From assembly GCA_000092065.1 (NCBI GenBank), contig CP000594.1: a stretch of DNA of 64,000 nucleotides, one strand, 5' to 3'. Of this stretch, positions 9,346-34,790 are shown piece after piece. The notes below the pieces were generated by a model. The model saw only the letters and a program-made list of their open reading frames with translations. It was not told the origin of the DNA and made no database searches. Made by a program: the position numbers and the translations under genes. Each line of letters begins with the position of its first letter. The stretch's first letter is position 1. This DNA comes from Ostreococcus lucimarinus. Taxonomy: Eukaryota.

Positions 9346-10151
9346 TCGTCGCGGACGCCGCGCGCTTCGACACATGGTCAAATCACACATTAAATACGTC
9401 GCACACACACCTAAAAAAACATAAACTTCAATCTCAGACCCCCGACGCGATCGCGCGACGCGTGTTACAGGTTTTTCCCGATCCCCCTCGATCGCGCGCC
9501 GACGTCACGCGATCGCGTCGCCGCGCGGTCGATCGATCGCCGATCGCCGTCGTCGAACCTCGCCGCGTCGATCGATGATCACGCGCGGACGATGCGGTGA
9601 GGTTCGACGCCCGCGCGGGCGCGTCGATCGCGAATATTCTCGAGACGTCGGGCCGCCGCGCGCACTTTACTTTACGTCGCGTGGTCGAACGACACACAGC
9701 AGGTGCGCGAGCGATGCGAGCGCGCGTGACCGAGACGCGCGCGCGCGGGAAATATTCCGCCGCGCGTTCGCGCGCGCGGAGGCGCGGCGCGGCGCGGGAT
9801 CGGGGCGAACGGACGCGCGATGGGACGCGCGCGCGATGATGATCCGTCCGCGGCGGCGGGTTATCTTGACGCGTGGCGTCGCGCGCGACGCGAATATGTC
9901 GGGGCTCGCGCGGTAATACCGCGCGGGAAATCGCGTGCGTCGATCCTGCGCGTCCGTGGGGGATGTCGCGGCGCGATCGCGCGGTGGGATGGGAAGATGT
10001 TGAAGATCTTGGATTTTTGGGACGAGGCGCGGGTGACGGCGCGCGGCGGCGCGGACGTCGAGGCGAAACGAACGAACCGGAAGACTGACGACGGCGAACG
10101 CGCTGAAAACGAGCAGTAAACCGCACATCAACACACTCCACAGACATAAAT

Positions 10152-11572: not shown

Positions 11573-12367
11573 ATGCCCGCGCGCGCGTCCGCGCCGCCTC
11601 GTCCCGCCGCGCGCGCGCGTCGCCCTCGCGCGCCGCGCCGCGCGTCGCGCGTCCCGCGCGCGTCCCCCCTCGACCGCATCGATCCCGCCGCCGTCGTCGC
11701 CCGCCTCGCCGAGGCCGCGCTCGCCTCGCCGCTCGTCCTCAAGCGCTGCGACGACGTCCGCGTCGTCGTCGACGCCGACCTCGCGCGCGCGCTCGCGCTC
11801 GGCGAGCTCGGCGGCGCGCGCGTGCGCGGCCGCGGCTGGTCGAGCCCGCGCGACTTGACCGCGCGCGACGTCGAGCTCGTCGCGCGCGACGTCCGCGTCG
11901 ACTGGAGCGCGGCGATGGCGATGCGAGGGGTGGTGCTCACGCGACCGGCGCGCGGCGAGGCGCGCCTGACGCTCGACGGGAGGGATTTCGAGAATTTCTT
12001 GAGGCACCCGCTGGCGAGACGCGCGGCGCGCGACGAAGCGTTCGAGTTCGAGCGAGGCGACGTCGCGAGCGACGACGACGACGGGTACCTGGAGTGCGAC
12101 GTGGTGATGCGAGACGGCGGCGCGCGGCGAACGGTGCGAATGCGACCGGGAGAGGGATCGACGGTTCGCGCGACGTCGCGCGGCGACGGGGACGAGACGC
12201 TCGAGCGCGCGTTGGAGACGTTTTTCGAGCGACTCGTCCTCGATTTAGACGGCACGGAGCTGCGGTATCGCGACATGACGATCGACGCGCGCGCGACGGC
12301 GCCGACGGTGACGTTCGAGCTCGATCTGTGCGTCAAAAGGTTTCCGTCGCCCGGGATACGGTTTTAG
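11573..12367 (+). CDS. Hypothetical protein with an Arg/Ala-rich transit-peptide-like N-terminus
   Basis: The C-terminal ~150 aa has normal amino-acid diversity (DFENFLRHPL...DDDDGYLECDVVMRDGG...TFELDLCVKRF). It lies in an extremely GC-rich stretch where three ORFs overlap, so the strand and frame are uncertain. Confidence 0.3.
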   Translation: MPARASAPPRPAARARRPRAPRRASRVPRASPLDRIDPAAVVARLAEAALASPLVLKRCDDVRVVVDADLARALALGELGGARVRGRGWSSPRDLTARDVELVARDVRVDWSAAMAMRGVVLTRPARGEARLTLDGRDFENFLRHPLARRAARDEAFEFERGDVASDDDDGYLECDVVMRDGGARRTVRMRPGEGSTVRATSRGDGDETLERALETFFERLVLDLDGTELRYRDMTIDARATAPTVTFELDLCVKRFPSPGIRF

Positions 12368-12923
12368 CTCGCGTTCTCTCGCTCGCGCGCGAGACGCGCG
12401 CCTCTAATTCTAGCTCTACACATCTAGTTCGCGTTTTCCGGCGCCCGCGTTCGCCTCGACGCCTCCCTCGTCACCGCCCGCATCGCGCTCGGCGGCCACA
12501 GCACCGCGGCGATCCGTCCTCGAAGCGCCCCCGTCGGCGTCTCGCCCGCGTCGCCGTCGTCTCGCGCGTCGCGTCCTCGCCATCCCGCGTCCGCTCGCAG
12601 CGCGCACGTCCCTCGCGAGGGCCCTCGCACGGCGTCGACGCGCTGAATCACGATGCCGTCGCCGTCGCGCGCGCGCACGGCGACGACGTCTCCCGCGTCG
12701 ATCGCGCCGCGCGCGACGCTCGCGCGGTCGCACCACACCACCACCGCCTCGAACGCGTCGCGCGCGTCGCTCGACGCGCTCGCGCGCCGCGCGAGCGCGC
12801 GCTCGGGCGCGCCGACGCGGTCGCCGACGACGGCGCCGAGCGCGAGCGCGAGCGCGCCGTCGCGCGCGACGCGCCGAAGCGTCATGCTCTGCCGCGCCGT
12901 CCCGGTCGCACTTCGCGACGCGC

Positions 12924-14192
12924 ATGCGCGACGCGCGGCGCCGCGCGCGCGCGCCGCGCGCGCGAATCGTCGCGGCGCTCGCGCTCGCGCTCGTCGCGGC
13001 GCGCGCGCGCGCGGGACGCGCGCGCGAGGCGACGGGACGCGCGAACGATGGCGACGACGTCGCGGCGCTGCGCGACGCGCTGCCGAGCGACGGCGCGACG
13101 CTGAGCGAACTGTTCAGGTGGTCGATCGAGGCGGGACACCCGCGCGCGTCGAGCGACGCCGACGATCGGGCGCGCGGCGACGCGGGTCGGGCGGAGGGTT
13201 GGCGCGCGAGGGCGCGCGCGGCGCTCGCGCGAGCGACGGGACGACGCGACGACGGCGCGAGCGCGGTCGACGCGATCGACGACGACGAGGGCGCGGAAGC
13301 GGAAGCGGGACGGTCGAAGACGGTGGATTCGATCGAGTCGAGGAAGAGGGAGGTGCGGGAGGCGCTGGACGCGATGGCGGCGGCGCCGAGTCCGCACGCG
13401 CTCGCGCGAGAGTGCGGCGAAGTGGTGAGGGACGCGCGTAAGAATGAAACCAAGGCGCGAAGGGTGCGCGCGCTGGAGATTTTGTACGATTTGGTGGCGC
13501 CGATCGAGTTGGCGAACGATTTGGATAAGCTCGGGGTGGCGGAGGCGCTGATCGGGGCGCTGAGGGACGAGGACGAGGACGTGGCGAGCGCGGCGGCGAG
13601 CGCGCTCGCGGCGGCGGCGTCGAATAACGTCGTCGTGCAGGGGATCATTCACGAGAGACGAGGGTTCGATGCGCTTTTAGAGCTCGTGTCGTCGCCCGCG
13701 ACGCCCGCGGAGGTGCGTCATAAGTCGTTGTGGGTGCTCGGGATGTGCGCGCGGACGCACGAGGCGTCGCGCGCCGACTTTTTCGCCGCGGGCGGCGCCG
13801 GCGTGTTGGCTGATATTTTGTCTCCGAAAACGCCGGTCAAGACGCGCACGCGCGCGATGGTCTTATTCGGCGACTTAGTTCTCATCGACGGCGTCGCGGA
13901 CGCGATGTTTGCCGACGTAAAAGTCGCGAAATCCTTACTCGAGGACGTCGTCGCGAGCGCGCTCGACGCCGACGCCTCGCTCGACGCGCGCGAGAAAGCG
14001 ATCGGCGCGCTTCTCGCCGCGCGCGAGCGCGGCCCTGAGATCGTGCGACATACGCTCGACGGATTCAAGCGCGATCTCTCGACGCTCGCCGACGCGTTCG
14101 ACGCCGCGGCAAAGGCGGAGGACGACGACTCCGCCGCCGACATCAGTCGTCTCGCGCGCGCGTTGAGCGTCTCGCCAAGGGTTGAATTGTAG
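12924..14192 (+). CDS. Armadillo-repeat Hsp70 nucleotide-exchange factor of the Fes1/HspBP1/SIL1 family, with a signal-peptide-like N-terminus (so SIL1-like)
   Basis: N-terminal Fes1-type motif (LSELFRWSIEAG) followed by ARM-like repeats (ALEILYDLVAPIELANDLDKLG...HKSLWVLGMCARTHEAS...RAMVLFGDLVLIDG). A hydrophobic stretch IVAALALALVAARARAG follows the start. Confidence 0.6.
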   Translation: MRDARRRARAPRARIVAALALALVAARARAGRAREATGRANDGDDVAALRDALPSDGATLSELFRWSIEAGHPRASSDADDRARGDAGRAEGWRARARAALARATGRRDDGASAVDAIDDDEGAEAEAGRSKTVDSIESRKREVREALDAMAAAPSPHALARECGEVVRDARKNETKARRVRALEILYDLVAPIELANDLDKLGVAEALIGALRDEDEDVASAAASALAAAASNNVVVQGIIHERRGFDALLELVSSPATPAEVRHKSLWVLGMCARTHEASRADFFAAGGAGVLADILSPKTPVKTRTRAMVLFGDLVLIDGVADAMFADVKVAKSLLEDVVASALDADASLDAREKAIGALLAARERGPEIVRHTLDGFKRDLSTLADAFDAAAKAEDDDSAADISRLARALSVSPRVEL

Positions 14193-14338
14193 CGCGCGCG
14201 CGTTGAAATAGCATCCTCGTTCGTTGGTCATGTGGACTTCTTCATCATCACATTTCTACTAGTGTTAGATGGCGCCTCGCTCGCGTCGTCGATCTCGAAA
14301 GACCGCCTCCGCTCGCGCGCGCTCGCGCCTCGCCCCGC

Positions 14339-15091
14339 TCAGATGCGGTCGCGCGGCCCGACGACGGCCGGTTGCTGCGGGCCGACCGTGATCGGAAGCT
14401 TGGCGTCCTTCGCCCCCTTCACGCCGTACCCGACGGTCAACAAACCCGCGGAAACGGCCAAGAGCGAGTACACGGCCTCGCGTCGGCCCAAGCCTTGCGC
14501 CGCGTATTCGAAAAACGCCGCCTGTTGATCCGGGTATCGGCTCGACGCGTCGACGCCGTAGACGTCCCACGACCCCGTCGTCGCCTCGACGTCGGACAGA
14601 TCGAAGTACACCGACTCATCGCCGTACTTCGCGTTCGTCTTCATCGCGCTGCATCGTTCGCAAACCACCGCGCGCGCCGTCAGTCCCTCGTCCCGCCGTC
14701 TCGCCCTCGCGCCCCGCTCGCTATCCGTCCCGATCGCGCCCCTCGCGCGCGTCTCCGCCCCTTTTCCGAACCCTCGTCGCCGCTCGCGCCGCGTCCCGCT
14801 CGCGTCGCGCGCGCGCGTCCTGGAGCGCGTCTCGCGCCCCTCGCACGCCCATCGTTCGCTCGCGTCGCGCGTCGTCGCGCGTCGCGTCGTCGTCCCGCGT
14901 CGCTCGAGATACGATCGCGATTCGCCCCTCGCGCGCCGCGCGTCGTTCGCGCGCGATCGCGCGTCGCGTCGCGTCACGCGCGGTCGATCGCGACGTCGCG
15001 GCACGCACCGTTCGCGTCGCGCGCGCGTCGAGCGCGGCGCGCGCACGGCGACGCCGGTGGCGAACGAGGTGGTCTTCGCGGTGGCGAACAT
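14339..15091 (-). CDS. psaO: Photosystem I subunit O (PsaO) precursor, a two-exon gene
   Basis: Exon 2 (14648..14339) encodes the mature PsaO region (FDLSDVEATTGSWDVYGVDASSRYPDQQAAFFEYAA...LLAVSAGLLTVGYG...LPITVGPQQPAVVGPRDRI). Exon 1 (15091..15009) encodes a short transit peptide, MFATAKTTSFATGVAVRAPRSTRARRE. The donor is CG|GTGCGTGC and the acceptor ...CTGAC...GATGCAG|C. Together the exons are 393 nt, giving 130 aa in frame. Confidence 0.75.
   Translation of the reverse strand: MFATAKTTSFATGVAVRAPRSTRARRERCVPRRRDRPRVTRRDARSRANDARRARGESRSYLERRGTTTRRATTRDASERWACEGRETRSRTRARDASGTRRERRRGFGKGAETRARGAIGTDSERGARARRRDEGLTARAVVCERCSAMKTNAKYGDESVYFDLSDVEATTGSWDVYGVDASSRYPDQQAAFFEYAAQGLGRREAVYSLLAVSAGLLTVGYGVKGAKDAKLPITVGPQQPAVVGPRDRI
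14649..15008 (-). other. Intron of psaO (~360 nt, GT-AG)
   Basis: GTGCGT donor. A CTGAC branch motif lies ~30 nt upstream of the CAG acceptor. Removing it restores the frame between the transit peptide and the mature PsaO. Confidence 0.7.
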
Positions 15092-15339
15092 GGCGCGTCG
15101 GGGTGTGGCGACCGGGGATTCGTTTCTCCGTATTCGACGTCCATCGAACGCCATCATAGGGACGTCGATCGCGGTTTATCGCGATCCACGTGGATTCGGC
15201 GCGATCGCGTGTGGAATCGGGGGGACGCGCGATGGTATTATACGTCATCGAGGGGTATATAATGCGTCGAAGTTTTACTATATAGAGGAGCGCGATCGGT
15301 CGGACGGTCGGTCGGACGCGGTCGGTCGGACGGCGCGCG

Positions 15340-17592
15340 CTACGCGTCGTCGTCGTCGTCGTCGTCGGCGGCGGGGCGTCGGCCGGCGTGCGCGGCGTTG
15401 ATCTCGCGAGCCTCGCGGCGGAGGGACTTGACGACGCGGCGGTCGGCGCGGGCGGCGCGGGCGTCGGAGAGCGCGCGCGCGGAGGCGCGCGACGGACGCT
15501 GCCAGGCGCTGCTTCGGCGCGCGGGCGCGCGGGACGGGGCGTGGGAGTGGCCGTGGGCGTGGGCGTGGACGCGAGACGCGTCGGTGGACGCGGCGTGGGA
15601 GTGGCCGTGGGCGCGCTGGGCGCGTTTTTGGGCCTTGGCTTTGGCGGCGTCGGCGGAGGCGGCGGTTTCGGCGACGGCGAGGGCGCGGTCGGCCCAGGCG
15701 TAGGCGCTTTGCATCGCGGCCTGCGCGCCTTTGGTGGATTTGAGTTCGGTTTTGAACTCCTTTCGCGTCGACACCGGAACGAGGGCGCCGGCGTGATCTT
15801 TAGTCGCGCCGGGCGGCGCGACGACGAAGTCGTTCGCCGAACGAACGTCGACGAAGACGTCGGAAGAACGCGCGTCGACGTCGGCCGCGGACGCCGCGTT
15901 CGCCCTCGTCGCGGCTTTGTTAATTTCGTCGACGCGAAGCGCGTTCACGTCGTCCAGCATGCGGCGTCGCGCGCCTTCGAGATCTGTAATCATGCGCGTC
16001 GGGTACGTCGATCCCAACTCGACGCCCGCGGCGTCGAGCTGCTTCGCCGACGCTTCCCACGGGCGGTGTCGCAGGTGCCCTTTCGGCAGCGCCGCGAGCT
16101 CTGGAATCCATCGAGCGATGCTCTCGCCTTCGGGGTCGTGCGCTCGAGAGGATCCATCTGGGGTCAACGAACCCGCGAAGACGTCCCACTGATCGAGTCC
16201 GCTCTTTCCCGCGTTTTGCCACATCATGGAATTGATCGCCAAGTCCGCGTCCACGAGAGTGTCGAGGAACCAATCTGCGCCGTGCGTCCAATGAACGCCG
16301 CAGTAATCGACGAGAAACGTGGCCGCAATCATGCGTTCACTCTGATGCATCCATCCGGTGGCCCAAAGCCGGCGCATGCCCGCGTCCACGGTGGGGAAGC
16401 CCGTCGTTCCAGTTTGCCATCGATGAAGCGCAACGGCGGCTTCGTCGCCCTCCAACCAAGCCTTGCGATTCTCGTAGTGCCCACGCACGGACTTGGACGG
16501 TAACTCGGGCCAGTTGTGCAGTTGCCAGTACGCAAACTCTCGGCGATAGAGACGGTGCCAAAACACGCGAGAGAGCTTTTTGCCCTCCACCCCGTCGCTG
16601 CCCATCTTTTTCGTCGCCAATTCGTGGTAAATCTGCCGCGGCGATATCTGACCATGGCGTAAATACGGTGAAAGCGTGCTCACCGCGGCCGGAGCGACGA
16701 TATCCGCTCTTCCGTGATCGTCCTCAAACTTCTCCAACCCCACCGAAGCGAAGTGCTCCCAAGTAGAGGCGGCGCCCGACTCCGACATCGTCCACTCCGC
16801 GCGAATCCCAGCCGCCCAGTCCAAGCGTTTATCTACGTCTGATACTATCCCTAATTCTTCTAACGACGCCGCGAATCCGTGCTCGGGGCCTAAATCCACC
16901 ACTCGCGCGCTCGCCGGCGCCGCGCGCGGCGCCCCCACTTTCCCTCCGAGCTTCTCCGCGGCGTGCACGAACGGCATGAGCGTGCCGAAAAAGTACTTTT
17001 CCCTCCTCAGATCGATCTGAATCTTCTCTGGCTCAAACAACAAGTACCCCGGCAAGCGCACGATCTCGCACGCGTCCCGCACGCTCGCCGCCGTCTCTTC
17101 GTCGTCCGCGTCCGCCGTCGGTTCGTACCGCCTCGACGCGAACGCGCGCGTCGCTCCCACTCCCCCGCACGCCGCTCGCATCGCCTCCGCGTGCGTCCCG
17201 CGATAATACGACAGTCCTCCTCCACCGTACCGTCGTCGCAGTTCGCGATCGAGCGCGTCCAGCGCTTCGACCAACCACGCCCTTCGCGCGCCTCTCGTCG
17301 TCTCGCCGTCTCGCGTCTCGTCCCACGCGAACACGCACGCCGTCTCGCCGCCGCGCCGTCGCGCCGTCTCCACCGCGGCGAGCAGCGCGGCGTTATCGCT
17401 CACGCGCAGGTCGTGGTCTCGGAACCACGCGACGGCGCCGCGACGCGCGTCGTCGGCGTCGCGCTGACGATTTGTGTCGCCCTCGACGTCACGCGTCGCG
17501 CGCGGCGCGAACCGTCGTGCGGCGCGCGTCGCGGGCGAGGACGCGCGCGCGGCGATCGGCGTCGCCGAGCTCGCGCGCGCGCCGAGGCGCAT
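15340..17592 (-). CDS. CRY: Plant-type cryptochrome of the photolyase/cryptochrome family, with a long low-complexity C-terminal extension
   Basis: Photolyase α/β domain (WFRDHDLRVSDNAALLAA) and FAD-binding domain (TGTTGFPTVDAGMRRLWATGWMHQSERMIAATFLV, WQNAGKSGLDQWDVF). The ~250-aa C-terminal tail includes a His-rich stretch (HGHSHAASTDASRVHAHAHGHSHAP). The start is taken as the in-frame ATG at 17592; the upstream part of the ORF is Arg-rich filler. Confidence 0.85.
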   Translation of the reverse strand: MRLGARASSATPIAARASSPATRAARRFAPRATRDVEGDTNRQRDADDARRGAVAWFRDHDLRVSDNAALLAAVETARRRGGETACVFAWDETRDGETTRGARRAWLVEALDALDRELRRRYGGGGLSYYRGTHAEAMRAACGGVGATRAFASRRYEPTADADDEETAASVRDACEIVRLPGYLLFEPEKIQIDLRREKYFFGTLMPFVHAAEKLGGKVGAPRAAPASARVVDLGPEHGFAASLEELGIVSDVDKRLDWAAGIRAEWTMSESGAASTWEHFASVGLEKFEDDHGRADIVAPAAVSTLSPYLRHGQISPRQIYHELATKKMGSDGVEGKKLSRVFWHRLYRREFAYWQLHNWPELPSKSVRGHYENRKAWLEGDEAAVALHRWQTGTTGFPTVDAGMRRLWATGWMHQSERMIAATFLVDYCGVHWTHGADWFLDTLVDADLAINSMMWQNAGKSGLDQWDVFAGSLTPDGSSRAHDPEGESIARWIPELAALPKGHLRHRPWEASAKQLDAAGVELGSTYPTRMITDLEGARRRMLDDVNALRVDEINKAATRANAASAADVDARSSDVFVDVRSANDFVVAPPGATKDHAGALVPVSTRKEFKTELKSTKGAQAAMQSAYAWADRALAVAETAASADAAKAKAQKRAQRAHGHSHAASTDASRVHAHAHGHSHAPSRAPARRSSAWQRPSRASARALSDARAARADRRVVKSLRREAREINAAHAGRRPAADDDDDDDA

Positions 17593-17666
17593 CGCGCGCG
17601 CGACGCGACGCGACGCGACGAGCGACGACGAATGGCGACGACGAACGGCGTCTCGTCTGGATTCGA

Positions 17667-18572
17667 TTAAATGTTGAGCGCGTGCGCGACGGATCCCGCG
17701 AGCTTCAAAACGACGAAAGGCGCGACGCCGCTGCACGCGCTGACGGTCTGCGGACACGAATCGGTGATCCAAAAGTTGGCGAACCCGGCGGACGGGTCGG
17801 TGAAACGACGCCAAGACTCGTTGGGAAAGACGCCGTGGGTGACGTAGGCGCTCACCGCGGAGGCGCCCTCGCGGCGAAGAACCTTGGCGCACTCGATGAG
17901 GGTGCCGCCGGATTGCACGAGATCGTCCACGATGACGATGTGCTTACCCGTGGGTTTGCCCTCCTTGATCGTGACGATGCGCTTGTCGCCCTCGCGAACC
18001 TTGGTGCAGACGACCTCGTCGTACTTGGCGAAAAAGTTGTGAAAGCGCTTGCACGCGCCCTCGTCGGGGTAGGCGATGACGACGTCCGCGGCGTCTTCTA
18101 AACTTGCTAATCGCTCCAACAAAAGCGGAATTCCCGATGCGAACAGCGGAGTGACGGAGTCACCGAAATAAAATCGCTCCTGAAGCGCGTGAATGTCGAA
18201 CACGATCATATCCGTCGGCCCGCCTCGCGAGTGCGGAATCGAGCTCAACATTCTCGCCATCGTCACCGCGGTGGGGATTTCTCCTTCCTTATCCACCCGT
18301 TCGAACGTACCGGTGGGGAAAAACGGTAAGATCAATCTGAACGACGCGACGAACATCTTGGGAAGGGAGTATATCACGCTAAGCTGTTGGAAAATCACAG
18401 ACGCGTTGTGAAACGACGCCAAAAACGCCACGTGCCGCCCGTGCAGCTGTTCCGCGTCGTTCACGAAAATGTTCGGGAAACCATCCGCGAACGTGCGCCA
18501 CTGAATCTCACCCAACTCAATGTTTCCGTCGATCGCCGCGATCTCTCTCGCCATTTGTTCCATCTGTTCCAT
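17667..18572 (-). CDS. PRS: Ribose-phosphate pyrophosphokinase (PRPP synthetase), class II-like
   Basis: N-terminal Pribosyltran_N-like region and a PRPP-binding loop ([27 protein letters not shown]). 301 aa. Confidence 0.8.
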
Positions 18573-29944: not shown

Positions 29945-32637
29945 ATGCCGCCCGCGCTGACGCCGAACGCGATATCCAATATTCTCGAACAGACCCACGG
30001 ATCGCAGGACTTCAAACCCATCGTCCAAGTGTTCGATCTGAAGGAATTGAAAACCAAACCCGACGCCGACGACGCCGCGAAGCGATTCCGCGTCCTCGCG
30101 TCCGACGGTGGATTCGCGGCGCAGGGATTGTTCGGGGCGGAGTTGAACGCGATGTGCGAGCGAGGGGAAATTACGAAATTCACGGTGCTGCGGTTGAGAG
30201 AGTACATCGTGAACGATCTGAACGGGAGACGGTGCGTGCGCGAGATGGGTTGGGATGGGCGGCGCGGCGCGGCGCGGCGCGGCGCGAGGGGCGAGACGAG
30301 ACGCGCGAGGATGGAGACGCGCGATCGAGGGATCGCGATGATCTTGGATGGAAGCGAGGAAGGCGGCGCGATGCGCGAGGGGGGTGACTGACGATCGTGC
30401 GAACGGACGAATGGTTTGAACGTAGGATTTTGATCGTCATGGACGCCGAGGTGATGGATCGGTACGACGCCGTCATCGGACAGCCGCGGGTGTGGCAGCC
30501 GGGGACTGGGACGAACGCGTCGACGGGGATGAACGCGGGGGGGATGCAACAGCAAAGAAACGCGTACGGAGGAGCGCCGGCGGCGCAGGTGGAAGGCTAC
30601 GGGTCGGGTGGAGGGAACGGCGCGAATCTGGCGACGGAACCGCCGCGCGCGAGCGGTGGCGGGTACGGTGGCGGCGCGCCGGCGGCGCAGGGGCAGTATC
30701 GTCGAGATGGTGGCGCGGTGGCGCGCAATGAGCAGCCGAGGTCCATCACGCCGATCCATGCGTTGAACCCGTACCAGAACCGTTGGACTATTCGCGCGCG
30801 AATCACGACTCCGTTGGAGTTGCGCTCGTATTCGAATGCGAAAGGCGAAGGTAAGGTGCTCGGCTTTCAAGTGCTCGATGCCGACGGAACGGAGATCAAG
30901 TGCGTGTGCTTTAACGACACCGCCGTGCGCCTCGCGGGGGAGTTACGTCAAGGCTTGGTGTACGAAATTTCCAAGGGAGCAATCGTCACGCCGCGCGACC
31001 CGCGGTACGCGATTTATCAGTACGAAATTAAGTTGGATAACCACGCGACGTTCGTGCCGTGTCCAGACGCCGAACGCGACATCAAGAAGATGGTATACAA
31101 GTTCAAGAAGCTTTCTGAACTCGACGCGCTCAACGCCGGAGATATGGTGGATGTCATTGGCATCGCATACTCTGTGGGTGATTTGACGACGATCATGAAG
31201 CGCGACGGTTCCGAAACTTCGAAGCGTTCTGTGATGATTCGCGACGACTCGGACACATCCATCGAGTTCACGCTTTGGGATCCGCACTCAGTCGAGATTG
31301 GCGGGCAAATCGAAAGCTTGATCGCTAGCGGCGAAAAACCCGTCATCGCGGTGAAGAGCTCTCGATTGGGCGAGTTCCAAGGCAAGAACATGGGCACCGT
31401 GAGCAGCACGATGGTAGAAATAAATCCCGACAGTTCCGAGGCGACGCGCATGCGCGTTTGGTTTGATCAAGGCGGCGCCGATAAAACTTTCAACTCCTTG
31501 AGCGGTTCTGGCGGTGGCGGCGGCAAAGGCAGTGGTGAATTGCTCTCGTTCTCGACTGTGAAAGAGATCGGTGAAGAACTCGTGGCTAAAAATGAGGGCG
31601 TGGCGTACCTGAGTTGCTGCGGTATCATAAAGCACATCAAACTCGGCGCGGAAGGTAACTTCTATCCCGCGTGTCCGTTGCTTAATGGTGAACGCACGTG
31701 CCAAAAGAAGCTGCGTAAAGATGACTCGACTGGTGAATGGAAGTGCGAACGTCACGCCGGTGAAAAAATCGAAGCCGCGGATTGGCGTTACATGTTTAGC
31801 ATGGTTTGCATGGATCACAGCGATGAGTATTGGGTGAGCGTTTTCGGTGACAAGGGTGACAAGATTTTCGGGATAAGCGCCGCTGAAATGAAGGAAATCT
31901 ACGACCGTGAACCGGAGCGATACGAAAACATGATCAGTGACGCACTGTTCAACGATTACTCTCTACGCGTTAAGGTCGCCGTTGACAACTACACCGACGT
32001 ACCCCGCGCCAAGGGCAGCTTGGTTGAAATCGAGCGCGTCAACTACGTAGACATGAGCAAGAAGTTGATCGGCAAGATTGCAAAGCTTCACGCTGGCGAA
32101 GAACCCGAAGTGTACGTGCCGCCTACGAAGAAGCGTGCTTCCGATGTCGGTTACGGGCAGGAGAACAAGATGCCGGCGTTCAACGGCGGTTGGAACCAAG
32201 CGGGTGGGCAAGCCAACGGTGGTGGCGCGAGTGCCGCGAACGCCGCGAACGCAACTTGCTACAAGTGCGGTCAGACCGGTCATTTTGCGGCAGCCTGCCC
32301 GAGCGGTGGCGGCGGCGGCGGCGGTGCGTCGTACAACCAATTCAATGGCAACGGCGGCGGTGGCGGCTTCAACAACAACGCTCCGAAGAAGGGCGCTTGC
32401 CACAAGTGCGGCGGAGAGGGACACTGGGCGCGCGACTGTCCGAACGCGGCCTACATGGGCAACGGCAACGGCGGTAATCAACCGGTGCACAACGGCAACG
32501 GCTACGGTGGTGGCGGCTACGGTGGCGGCGGCGGCGGCTACGGTGGCGGCGGCGGCGGCTACGGCGGCGGCGGCGGCGGCTACGGCGGCGGCGGCGGCGG
32601 TTACGGCGGTGGTGGCTACGGCGGCGGTGGTTTTTAA
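29945..32637 (+). CDS. RPA1: Replication protein A large subunit (RPA1/RPA70), two exons, with two C-terminal CCHC zinc knuckles and a Gly/Tyr-rich tail
   Basis: Exon 1 (29945..30231) is the RPA70N domain (FKPIVQVFDLKEL...RFRVLASDG...FTVLRLREYIVNDLNGRR). Exon 2 (30426..32637) carries the OB-fold DBD-A/B/C and the C4 zinc ribbon. It ends with CYKCGQTGHFAAACP and CHKCGGEGHWARDCP knuckles and GYGGGGGG repeats. The splice CG|GTGCGTGC ... CTGAC ... GAACGTAG|G joins ...DLNGRR to ILIVMDAEVMD, reproducing the conserved GRRVVILMELEV junction. Confidence 0.85.
30232..30425 (+). other. Intron of RPA1 (194 nt, GT-AG)
   Basis: GTGCGT donor, a CTGAC branch motif ~36 nt from the 3' end, and a TAG acceptor. 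The flanking ORFs are in different frames, which the splice reconciles. Confidence 0.8.
32500..32632 (+). repeat. In-frame GGC/TAC codon tandem repeat, (GGCGGCGGCGGCGGCTAC)n, encoding (GGGGGGY)n
   Basis: ggctacggtggcggcggcggcggctacggtggcggcggc... at the 3' end of RPA1. Confidence 0.85.
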
Positions 32638-32723
32638 AATCAGATCACGAACAAACGCACGAACGCACGAATAGATGACACGCGCATGTAACATGAACGA
32701 ACGAATACAACAAATTACAAACA

Positions 32724-34790
32724 CTATTCGTCGACGAGCGGAAGCGCGTCTCTCGAACGGATGGCTGGAAGCATAGCCGGAATCAAGTTCAGGTAATCTT
32801 CCAACAGTCCTGTCGTGGTGATGAACTGCCACGTGAAGAAGGCCATGACGAGTGATACGAAAAGCGTGGCGACGAAAGCGCGCTCGCGGAAACCCGAACG
32901 CCGGATCATAGCGATCGTCGTTGCCATGACGGGATGAATCGTCATTCTGAAGTAGAACATCGGATAGAAAACGACGAGCGCGACGGAGTACACGGCCAAG
33001 TGTCTCAAGTACTGACGACGCTGTGACCCAGACATTTGCTGCCACGTAAGACCTCGCCACGAGCCCGCTAAAGCTCGTCGCGGCGGTCTTGGAACGAAAG
33101 GTTCATGCTTGCACTTGACGCAGTGACACTTACCACCCACGATGCAACGAGGCAAGATGTGGGGCGAAAACTTTTCATGCAGCTTTTCGATGCCATCGTC
33201 GTCCGCTTGGTAAATCAAAATGCGTCCCTTTGTGCTACTACTCACGACCTCGAGTAATATTTGCAACGCACGTCTCATGAGCCACCACACATTGATGCAA
33301 TGCACCTCGCACGCCAGCTCCGGGTAGTTGGCGTCGAGCGTCACGAGAGTCGTGGCGACGAGGGAAATCGGAAGCGAAGTCAAATCGATACCCGAGCAAT
33401 CGACGAGCGCCACCAAACGACCTCGCATGACACCATTTGACTTCTTCAACCGCATCCACTCCTGCTCGGCGTGCGTCATCACCGCGGCAACGACTTCGTC
33501 CAAGCCTTCCATGCCCACTGCGTCCATGGCGGCTCGAAGTCTCAGCACGAGTTGATAACCGCCGCTCCAGCTTTGCTTCGGACCGTGAATGTATACCACG
33601 TTCTCAAACTGCTTCAGCTTGGCGTCGGTCAAGAACTCATACCTTCTGCGCCATTGCAACGATCGTTCCACGGCTTGCGCCGCGGCGGACGTGTGCTTCC
33701 ACTGTAACAAGAAAGCCGCGAGTTGGGTGTCGGTGAACTTGGCTCTCGCGGTCGGCGAGAGTTTATTTTTCAAAGCGTGAATCTCGTATTCGCGGGGAAT
33801 TAACAGTGCGTTCCCGTATCCAGTATCTGTCGCCACCACACCAGTGTACACGGCGGCTGGCAGTCGTTGTAATCTATTCATTCCGCCCTTGACCCAACCG
33901 ACGGGGCGCAGCAGCGCGTGCCTTTGCCTATGGCTTTCGGCGTACTCTCTCGATTGATTGATGCTCTCGTCGTCGCTCTCTTCATCGCTACCTATGTCTT
34001 CGTCACTGGCGTACTCTCCGTTCGTCCCCGTTCCCGATCCACGTCGACGCCTTCGTCTGTTCCTAGCCCCCGTGAATCGCGCGATGGTGCTCAGCTGTCC
34101 CTCCGCGTGCCGCATCGCGTACAGCACGTCCCTCGGCAACGTCTCCTCCAAAACCTCCCACGCCTCGTTCACCGCCGCCCTATACGAACTCACCTCATTC
34201 TTCACCTTATTCTTCGCCAACAACTTCCCCAACCGCTTCGCGTGTCGCTGCAGCTTTATCCGCACCGCCGGAATCTTGCACACGCGCGCCGCCATTTTCG
34301 CAAACTTCCGCACGAAACATTTATACGGCGCCGACGCCGCGACGAGCAGCGCCACGCGTCCCGTGATCGTCGGCAGCGGCTTACTCGACGCCAGCCCCTT
34401 CGTCATCGTCGCCAACGCCTTGACGACGAGCGTTTCGATCCTTCGTCTTCGCGTCCCGACCGCGTTCGCCTTTAAAAATCCCAACGTTCGTCGTCCGCGG
34501 TGGTTGACGCGATACATCTCTCCCGCGCACACGCACGCCGCGACCAGCGGGCCGCGTCGTCGTCGGGCTTTGCGCAGCCAGACGACTCGCGCGGCGTAGC
34601 TCGCGAACTGCGCCGTGGGCGTCGTCGCGCGGTACAATTCGCGCGCGACCGCCGCCGTGGACGCCGTCGCGAGCGCGACGGCACCGCGACCGAGCGGGCG
34701 CGTCGTCGCGCGCGCGACGACGCGAACGGCGACCTCAGCGGTAGCACCATCGTCCGCGCGCGTCGACGACGCGCCGGACGACGGCGTCAT
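32724..34790 (-). CDS. CRAL-TRIO (Sec14-like) lipid-binding domain protein with C-terminal transmembrane helices
   Basis: CRAL-TRIO N-terminal helix pattern (AAFLLQWKHTSAAAQAVERSLQWRRRYEF) and core domain (VYIHGP...LVALVDCSGIDLTSL...YPELACEVHCINVWWLMRRALQIL...GRILIY). Hydrophobic C-terminus. Confidence 0.65.
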   Translation of the reverse strand: MTPSSGASSTRADDGATAEVAVRVVARATTRPLGRGAVALATASTAAVARELYRATTPTAQFASYAARVVWLRKARRRRGPLVAACVCAGEMYRVNHRGRRTLGFLKANAVGTRRRRIETLVVKALATMTKGLASSKPLPTITGRVALLVAASAPYKCFVRKFAKMAARVCKIPAVRIKLQRHAKRLGKLLAKNKVKNEVSSYRAAVNEAWEVLEETLPRDVLYAMRHAEGQLSTIARFTGARNRRRRRRGSGTGTNGEYASDEDIGSDEESDDESINQSREYAESHRQRHALLRPVGWVKGGMNRLQRLPAAVYTGVVATDTGYGNALLIPREYEIHALKNKLSPTARAKFTDTQLAAFLLQWKHTSAAAQAVERSLQWRRRYEFLTDAKLKQFENVVYIHGPKQSWSGGYQLVLRLRAAMDAVGMEGLDEVVAAVMTHAEQEWMRLKKSNGVMRGRLVALVDCSGIDLTSLPISLVATTLVTLDANYPELACEVHCINVWWLMRRALQILLEVVSSSTKGRILIYQADDDGIEKLHEKFSPHILPRCIVGGKCHCVKCKHEPFVPRPPRRALAGSWRGLTWQQMSGSQRRQYLRHLAVYSVALVVFYPMFYFRMTIHPVMATTIAMIRRSGFRERAFVATLFVSLVMAFFTWQFITTTGLLEDYLNLIPAMLPAIRSRDALPLVDE

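Follow-up and report, generated by a model that had tools for sequence, protein, structure and literature searches.

The window analysed here, the whole of a 64-kb stretch of Ostreococcus lucimarinus DNA, carries on its minus strand a 272-aa open reading frame (14339..15157), which raises two questions: is this frame translated as it stands, or is it a split gene read through its intron; and which photosystem I (PSI) subunit does it encode? Our answer is that the locus 14339..15091 on the minus strand is almost certainly the nuclear psaH gene of O. lucimarinus, encoding photosystem I reaction-centre subunit VI (PSI-H) as a 130-aa precursor, with two exons and one 360-nt U2-type GT-AG intron, the 272-aa ORF being accidental. 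The parts of the gene are as follows.

15009..15091, minus strand: psaH exon 1 (CDS part), 83 nt, with the ATG at 15091..15089 (MFATAK); it encodes MFATAKTTSFATGVAVRAPRSTRARRE plus 2 nt of codon 28, and would supply most of the transit peptide.
14649..15008, minus strand: spliceosomal GT-AG intron of phase 2 (codon 28), 360 nt, G/A-rich and T-poor on the sense strand.
14339..14648, minus strand: psaH exon 2, 310 nt, comprising the last base of codon 28, the predicted end of the transit peptide (AMKTNA), the mature PsaH region (~14629..14342) and the TGA (14341..14339).

We analysed the relation of the spliced 130-aa product to known protein families. As its sole Pfam match at E<=1, the product returned PF03244 (PSI_PsaH), with 173 bits (cut-off 25) and an E-value of 3.2e-51; the alignment pairs profile positions 2-139 of 139 with product residues 3-130. 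In a search of the PDB up to E=10, 33 of the 33 matches were PsaH or chain H, with no PsaO chain among them; the top match, O. tauri PsaH (7yca_H, E 5.6e-63), aligned free of gaps, query residues 1-130 corresponding to chain residues 37-166. The product was also 100% identical (130/130 aa) to the homologue P0001 (ABO99701.1 / XP_001421408.1 / UniRef100_A4S781), and the public title of XP_001421408.1 is 'psaH, PSI-H, subunit VI, photosystem I polypeptide [Ostreococcus lucimarinus CCE9901]'. Two further searches came back empty: NCBIfam gave zero matches with the product, as expected from a library of bacterial and archaeal families, and an exact look-up of P0001 in the contig index found no record. 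The initial annotation had named the gene psaO (PSI subunit O), which is wrong. Small size, nuclear encoding, membership of PSI and a transit peptide would, it is true, fit this name as well, and PsaO does occur in Ostreococcus PSI, as a distinct subunit of the O. tauri complex behind 7yca (PMC10097422); however, with Pfam, the PDB and the public record of the identical protein all pointing to PsaH, the probability that the gene is psaO is negligible.

In contrast to the name, the proposed splice sites proved exact to the base. The donor reads CG/GTGCGTGC at 15009/15008 and the acceptor CAG/C at 14649/14648, and in an exhaustive search of GT..AG pairs this was the single model that gave back the annotated protein, its product being XP_001421408.1 residue for residue. 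Removal of the 360-nt intron leaves a CDS of 393 nt (130 codons and a stop), in agreement with the earlier claim of a 130-aa precursor with a spliced length divisible by 3. Exon 1 translates into residues 1-27 of XP_001421408.1, with a GC3 of 0.93, and exon 2 is colinear with O. tauri PsaH (PDB 7yca chain H). A comparison with the annotated gene had been proposed as a check; the splice model matches the public record, although that record is psaH rather than psaO. The gene model 15091..15009 + 14648..14339 thus equals the public model for O. lucimarinus CCE9901, whose protein shows no difference from the spliced product; the gene itself was already known, and nothing in it is new.

To this model we can add three short environmental contigs that are without exactly positions 15008..14649 of the window, 15009 being joined directly to 14648.

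L001 (identical to L005), JGI Ga0182095_1056510: intron-less.
L002, Logan SRR6824979: intron-less.
L054, Logan SRR6824983: intron-less.

Relative to the window these contigs are 99.9-100% identical downstream of the junction and ~89% identical upstream of it; their strain matches CCE9901 at 100% in exon 2 and at 96% in exon 1. The DNA of exon 2 is 100% identical in all three of them; it is also identical in the genomic contigs L003, L006, L009 and L044 described next, save for one single-base insertion in L003. At its 5' end L001 carries ~210 nt of an unrelated gene, and may be partly chimeric.

The genomic contigs L003, L006, L009 and L044 carry the intron, at a length of 358 to 376 nt and with indels, and the 83-nt length of exon 1 is free of indels in 5/5 O. 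lucimarinus-like haplotypes (the window and these four contigs). In L009 (Ga0181559) and L044 (Ga0181562), exon 1 is 100% identical to that of the intron-less contigs, and yet both have an intron, of 360 and 358 nt, respectively, with the pattern GTGCGTATA...GACTGACGG...GATGCAG. Because the same exon-1 haplotype bears the intron in L009 and L044, we regard L001, L002 and L054 as spliced transcripts and not as an intron-less allele, and infer that they are of RNA origin (metatranscriptome or RNA-seq).

An alternative is that the three contigs derive from the genome of a strain with a precise loss of the intron (a presence/absence polymorphism), in which case they would say nothing about splicing. 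They do reach the promoter region and the convergent neighbouring gene, which is unusual for a single mRNA; however, genes here are spaced by <250 nt, and overlapping transcripts can co-assemble. Besides L009 and L044, in which the identical exon-1 haplotype has an intron and whose JGI names (Ga0181xxx) resemble those of most intron-containing contigs, a scan of JGI metagenome contigs also speaks against intron loss: matches colinear over residues 1-130 were found only in the short-contig Ga01820xx series, there in two lineages (L005, and L010 for the second), whereas the long contigs (Ga01815xx, Ga02557xx) all show the split. The Ga01820xx series is, we presume, metatranscriptomic. Intron loss is thus very unlikely as the origin of the three contigs, and splicing remains the preferred reading. 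The RNA check of the junction that had been suggested earlier is therefore answered in part: three intron-less contigs show the same junction, but their source is a near-identical strain and their RNA origin is deduced as above. Judged from that strain, 14649..15008 appears to be removed from mature transcripts.

How, then, does the intron come to lie in an open frame? The earlier claim that the 272-aa ORF is an artefact with an Arg-rich read-through of the intron in its middle is borne out by codon composition, by shuffling and by sister strains. The intron part of the ORF is indeed Arg-rich, and its GC content by codon position (0.71/0.76/0.81) is non-periodic, as opposed to the periodic 0.59/0.74/0.93 and 0.64/0.48/0.86 of the exons. 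Its composition is G168 C106 A62 T24, that is, 76% GC, 64% purine and 6.7% T; no stop codon interrupts 4/6 of its frames, and of its mononucleotide shuffles 20% stay free of stops in the frame of the ORF. An open frame of 120 codons is unremarkable because of this T-poor composition, the open frames and the stop-free shuffles; the same stretch is also overlapped by long ORFs in a second minus-strand frame and on the plus strand. The 272-aa ORF would thus be an accident of an intron length that happens to be 3n and of the rarity of stop codons at so little T. The frame that reads through the intron is not conserved among sister strains, as the genomic contigs show.

L003: intron of 376 nt (not 3n), stop at codon 41.
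L006: intron of 360 nt, frame open throughout the intron.
L009: intron of 360 nt, stop at codon 125.
L044: intron of 358 nt (not 3n), frame shift.

Could the continuous ORF of 272 aa (or of 250 aa from the ATG at 15091) nevertheless be translated, the intron being retained constitutively or in a regulated isoform, so that the presequence of PsaH would contain an insert of 120 Arg-rich aa? The intron is 3n and stop-free in frame both in this strain and in L006, and prokaryote-style gene callers yield such proteins (for example, P0105, 282 aa). However, the open frame is what composition predicts, the stretch is without codon periodicity, and the other sister strains have stops or a broken frame. 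Moreover, PF03244 matches the unspliced ORF (161 bits) at residues 163-272 alone, its C-terminal 110 aa, and such an insert is found in none of the 102 homologue matches, read-through calls on genomic contigs excepted. The existence of spliced transcripts (from the near-identical strain, and of deduced RNA origin) also counts against it. Translation of the continuous frame is therefore extremely unlikely, and a functional 272-aa protein was rejected on the composition shuffles and the sister-strain comparison. We return to the spliced gene.

The signals that define the intron are the following.

15002..15008, minus strand: 5' splice site GTGCGTG, which fits the published O. lucimarinus consensus outside chromosome 2 (PMC2483917).
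14678..14685, minus strand: putative branch-point motif GACTGACG, with the branch A at 14680, 31 nt before the last intron base.
14649..14651, minus strand: 3' splice site CAG, at the junction seen in the spliced contigs L001, L002 and L054.

The GTGCGT donor is conserved in L003, L006, L009 and L044, and the final 42 nt of the intron contain one variable base (T/C) among haplotypes. The branch motif GGACTGACGG is present, with its branch A at 14680. EST-confirmed O. lucimarinus introns outside chromosome 2 have an 'atypical consensus GTGCGTG', and their branch motif is ACTGAC in 87.2% and GACTGACG in 66.5% (Irimia and Roy 2008, PMC2483917); compared with them, the psaH donor and its ACTGAC/GACTGACG branch are the exact consensus. 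The psaH intron, at 360 nt, is however longer than the median of 111 nt and mean of 168 nt reported for O. lucimarinus introns. In the 64-kb window GACTGACG occurs 12 times, against 3.9 +/- 1.9 expected, and an RPA1-like gene in the window has ACG/GTGCGTGC ... TGACTGACGA ... CGTAG/G at 30232..30425. The constrained grammar of a GTGCGT donor and a CTGAC branch, which the initial annotation had described as common to psaH and RPA1, is thus real, with the signals seen in both genes, and was already published (PMC2483917). Introns are in excess in highly expressed O. lucimarinus genes (Lanier et al. 2008, PMC2367439); psaH is unnamed there, and a photosystem subunit with an intron fits this excess.

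Upstream of exon 1 the choice of the start codon has to be considered.

15142..15157, minus strand: upstream ATGs, two of them in frame at 15157 and 15154 (MMAFDG...) and one out of frame at 15144, which heads a 56-aa ORF.

These ATGs belong either to the 5' UTR or to an alternative start of a 152-aa precursor, which would have the same splice and consist of MMAFDGRRIRRNESPVATPRRA followed by the 130 aa. The two in-frame ATGs are present in the L001/L002/L009 haplotype, gene calls on L001 and L002 are 152 aa long (P0002, P0003), and O. tauri 7yca_H is deposited with an N-terminal extension of 36 aa. In L003 and L006, however, the in-frame upstream ATGs are absent, and conservation of the extension is poor; in Micromonas and further lineages the homologues start at the MFATAK/MAF... 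position, and the NCBI annotation is the 130-aa form. The out-of-frame ATG at 15144, lying between the candidate starts, argues for a 5' UTR beginning downstream of 15144. Overall, the 152-aa precursor is unlikely, and we favour, with good though incomplete confidence, translation from the ATG at 15091.

We next consider the precursor made from that start. Residues 1-34 of the product contain 16 Ala/Ser/Thr and 8 Lys/Arg against 1 acidic residue, and mature PsaH chains in the PDB begin at query residues 35-36. On this homology we predict a transit peptide of ~34 aa (residues 1-34) and a mature start at about K35 (KYGDES...). It had been claimed that the transit peptide is ~30 aa long and that the mature protein begins with MKTNAKYG; exon 1 does carry most of the peptide, but its length is better put at ~34 aa and the mature start at about KYGDES. 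The intron, in codon 28, thus lies ~7 codons upstream of the homology-placed mature N-terminus, not at the cleavage site. Exon 1 and the first 6 codons of exon 2 would together encode this transit peptide of ~34 aa, in which Ala, Thr, Ser and Arg abound; import and cleavage would then leave a mature protein of ~96 aa (KYGDESVYFDL...GPRDRI) with one hydrophobic helix (AVYSLLAVSAGLLTVGYGV). In the O. tauri structure 96 residues of PsaH were traced (PMC10097422). Compared with O. tauri PsaH (7yca_H), the mature part is nearly identical and the transit peptide diverged, the O. tauri deposit having 36 extra N-terminal residues.

In the O. tauri complex (Ishii et al. 2023, PMC10097422, PDB 7yca), PsaH has 3 Chl a and 1 SQDG as ligands, and PsaH and PsaL jointly make up the pocket that receives the phosphorylated RRpT N-terminus of Lhcp1. 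By homology with the O. tauri PSI supercomplex, mature PsaH of O. lucimarinus would adjoin PsaL on the PSI core and help to dock phosphorylated Lhcp/LHCII trimers; a role beside PsaL in O. lucimarinus PSI is accordingly suggested by analogy.

Is the intron a recent acquisition? In L017, from another Mamiellophyceae-like lineage, the spliced genomic locus encodes a protein identical to P0007, which in turn has a 99% match in the intron-less contig L010. The L017 intron is a 514-nt GT-AG intron of phase 2, 7 codons before KYGDES, which is the position and phase of the intron in the window. In L039 and L040 (P0021) the intron, likewise of phase 2, precedes KYGDES by 9 codons, and L024, L026, L032, L034 and L045 have by tblastn a two-block structure split at a similar position; for L024 and L026 (P0010-type) this means a two-HSP structure only, the contigs not being identical to P0010. 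The Micromonas pusilla-like L045 has an extra intron within the mature region. Since the position is common to other Mamiellophyceae lineages, the intron near the boundary of transit peptide and mature protein appears to be old, not a recent insertion.

The content of the intron was searched for repeats and RNA genes. The Introner elements of Micromonas (Simmons et al. 2015, PMC4540971) are likewise Mamiellophyceae introns with a repetitive-looking interior; unlike them, the psaH intron belongs to no repeat family within the window, and its position is common to other lineages. BLAST of the intron against the 64-kb window for introner-type repeat copies gave only 72-93% matches to low-complexity GC-rich tracts, and a repeat search found just degenerate GC-rich direct and inverted repeats. 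With low-complexity matches alone in the 64-kb window, an introner-like repeat family was ruled out. So was an RNA gene inside the intron: an Rfam search of the intron gave no significant family, its one match, to a miRNA family, being at chance level (20.6 bits and E 0.73, where the gathering score is 83).

The 5' part of the gene is hypervariable between near-identical strains. L003 and the window are 99-100% identical over 11600-14699 and 16000-17499, other intergenic spacers included, but 50-87% identical over 14700-15399 and 97-98% identical over 15400-15999. The divergence of 13-50% is thus concentrated in ~600 nt (~14700-15300) that run from the promoter through exon 1 into the intron, of which they include the 5' two-thirds, with flanking kilobases 99-100% identical; a milder tract of 2-3% divergence extends to ~16000. 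Intron identity to the window is 99.7% in L006, ~86% in L009 and L044, and 81% in L003, so that the psaH promoter, exon 1 and intron together come in three or more haplotypes set in near-identical backgrounds, with a sharp boundary within the intron. In all haplotypes the sense strand of the intron is purine-rich and GC-skewed (64% and +0.23 in the window).

The 5' end of psaH may therefore be a hot spot of micro-diversity between near-identical strains, possibly a new one. Possible causes of this island are recombination with a diverged lineage, low-complexity slippage, transcription-associated mutagenesis and chimeric metagenome assembly. A more specific idea, which we offer as doubtful, starts from the length, purine richness and GC skew of this first intron and from the very high expression of its gene: the intron would be a hot spot of transcription-associated (R-loop-type) mutation or recombination, or else diversifying or balancing selection on expression would act on it, and the conservation of its position across Mamiellophyceae would reflect the boost to expression that a 5'-proximal intron gives.

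As the gene and its intron, like the consensus of the splice signals, were public beforehand, the results on the gene model carry little biological weight. They do show that here exact splice sites are recoverable from sequence alone by means of the rigid GTGCGTG...GACTGACG...AG grammar, and that gene names assigned without a database search need a profile check, psaO having been given where psaH is correct. T-poor, GC-rich introns create long spurious ORFs, and read-through 'PsaH' proteins of 139 to 282 aa (P0004, P0005, P0105) pollute metagenome protein catalogues. The hypervariable 5' region of psaH could be of interest to picoeukaryote population genomics.

The initial annotation had ascribed to RPA1 the same intron signals as those of psaH, the minus-strand two-exon gene. 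In agreement with this, the RPA1-like gene contains a candidate intron with the splice signals of the psaH intron and, as in the psaH intron, a purine-rich interior:

Intron candidate in the RPA1-like gene
30232-30425, plus strand: ACG/GTGCGTGC ... TGACTGACGA ... CGTAG/G

Over both strands of the whole window, the extended branch motif GACTGACG was observed 12 times, against 3.9 ± 1.9 expected under a dinucleotide model. On the same scale (whole window, both strands), neither GTGCGTG alone (18 observed versus 14.9 expected) nor ACTGAC alone (20 versus 19.0) was enriched. Paired motifs are found at the following positions:

Pairs of GTGCGT...ACTGAC elsewhere in the window
9935-10084, plus strand
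32324-33011, plus strand
19236-18595, minus strand
23821-23042, minus strand

Comparison of the window with the intron-carrying genomic contigs of sister strains (L003, L006, L009 and L044) and with the intron-less contigs read as spliced transcripts (L001/L002/L054) placed a hypervariable island at 14700-16000. Identity between these strains is 99-100% in the kilobases on either side, other intergenic spacers among them. It drops to only 50-87% in a stretch comprising the psaH promoter, exon 1 and the intron's 5′ two-thirds, and is 97-98% at 15400-15999. At least three haplotypes are present at the island, which has a sharp edge near 14700, inside the intron. It is possible that the island was caused by recombination, slippage, transcription-associated mutation or assembly chimerism.

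Exon 2 of L003 is identical to that of the window, with the exception of a one-base insertion at ~3290 (window ~14390; GGTCGGGCCC vs GGTCGGCCC). Because of this insertion, which is probably a homopolymer sequencing error, the L003 product (P0019) matches the spliced PsaH query over only 68% of its length. In L045 (2045-3010), the Micromonas pusilla-like psaH locus, the coding sequence falls into three blocks: one intron lies at the transit-peptide position and a second one within the mature region.

When prokaryote-style gene callers are applied to metagenome contigs of Ostreococcus, artefactual PsaH proteins result. Some of these (P0004, P0005 and P0105) run on into the psaH intron, with lengths of 139, 170 and 282 aa, while P0009 and similar proteins begin at the internal Met30 and are 101 aa long, without the transit peptide. 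A further variant, P0008 (from MERC), has the same exon junction as the psaH product (..ERAMKTNAKYG). Its transit peptide lacks 11 residues (VRAPRSTRARR), and its C-terminus is frame-shifted. P0008 is not an alternative splice form, because there is no AG at the end of the 33 nt that it lacks; it reflects an in-frame deletion allele or else an error of assembly.

psaH is closely flanked on both sides by other open reading frames:

Neighbours of psaH
12924-14192, plus strand: Fes1-like ORF, convergent with psaH
15340-17892, minus strand: photolyase/cryptochrome-like ORF (FAD_binding_7), upstream neighbour of psaH

Just 146 nt separate the psaH stop from that of the Fes1-like ORF, and 248 nt lie between the end of the photolyase/cryptochrome-like ORF and the psaH ATG. 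Transcript contigs running across several genes can be accounted for by this close packing. We noted that positions 1-210 of the spliced contig L001 encode an unrelated protein's C-terminus (...GSYVYADADGVVVAAKKLEL*), which has no counterpart in the window. This 5′ end reflects either a chimeric transcript assembly, joined at a (CGACCGAC)n tract, or a different synteny in that strain.

Upstream of the psaH start, in-frame ATGs at 15157 and 15154 (minus strand) are present in some haplotypes only. An out-of-frame ATG at 15144 (minus strand), which heads a 56-aa ORF (14974..15144), is kept in every aligned strain. The pattern of upstream ATGs at 15142-15157 (minus strand) is relevant to where the psaH 5′ UTR starts.
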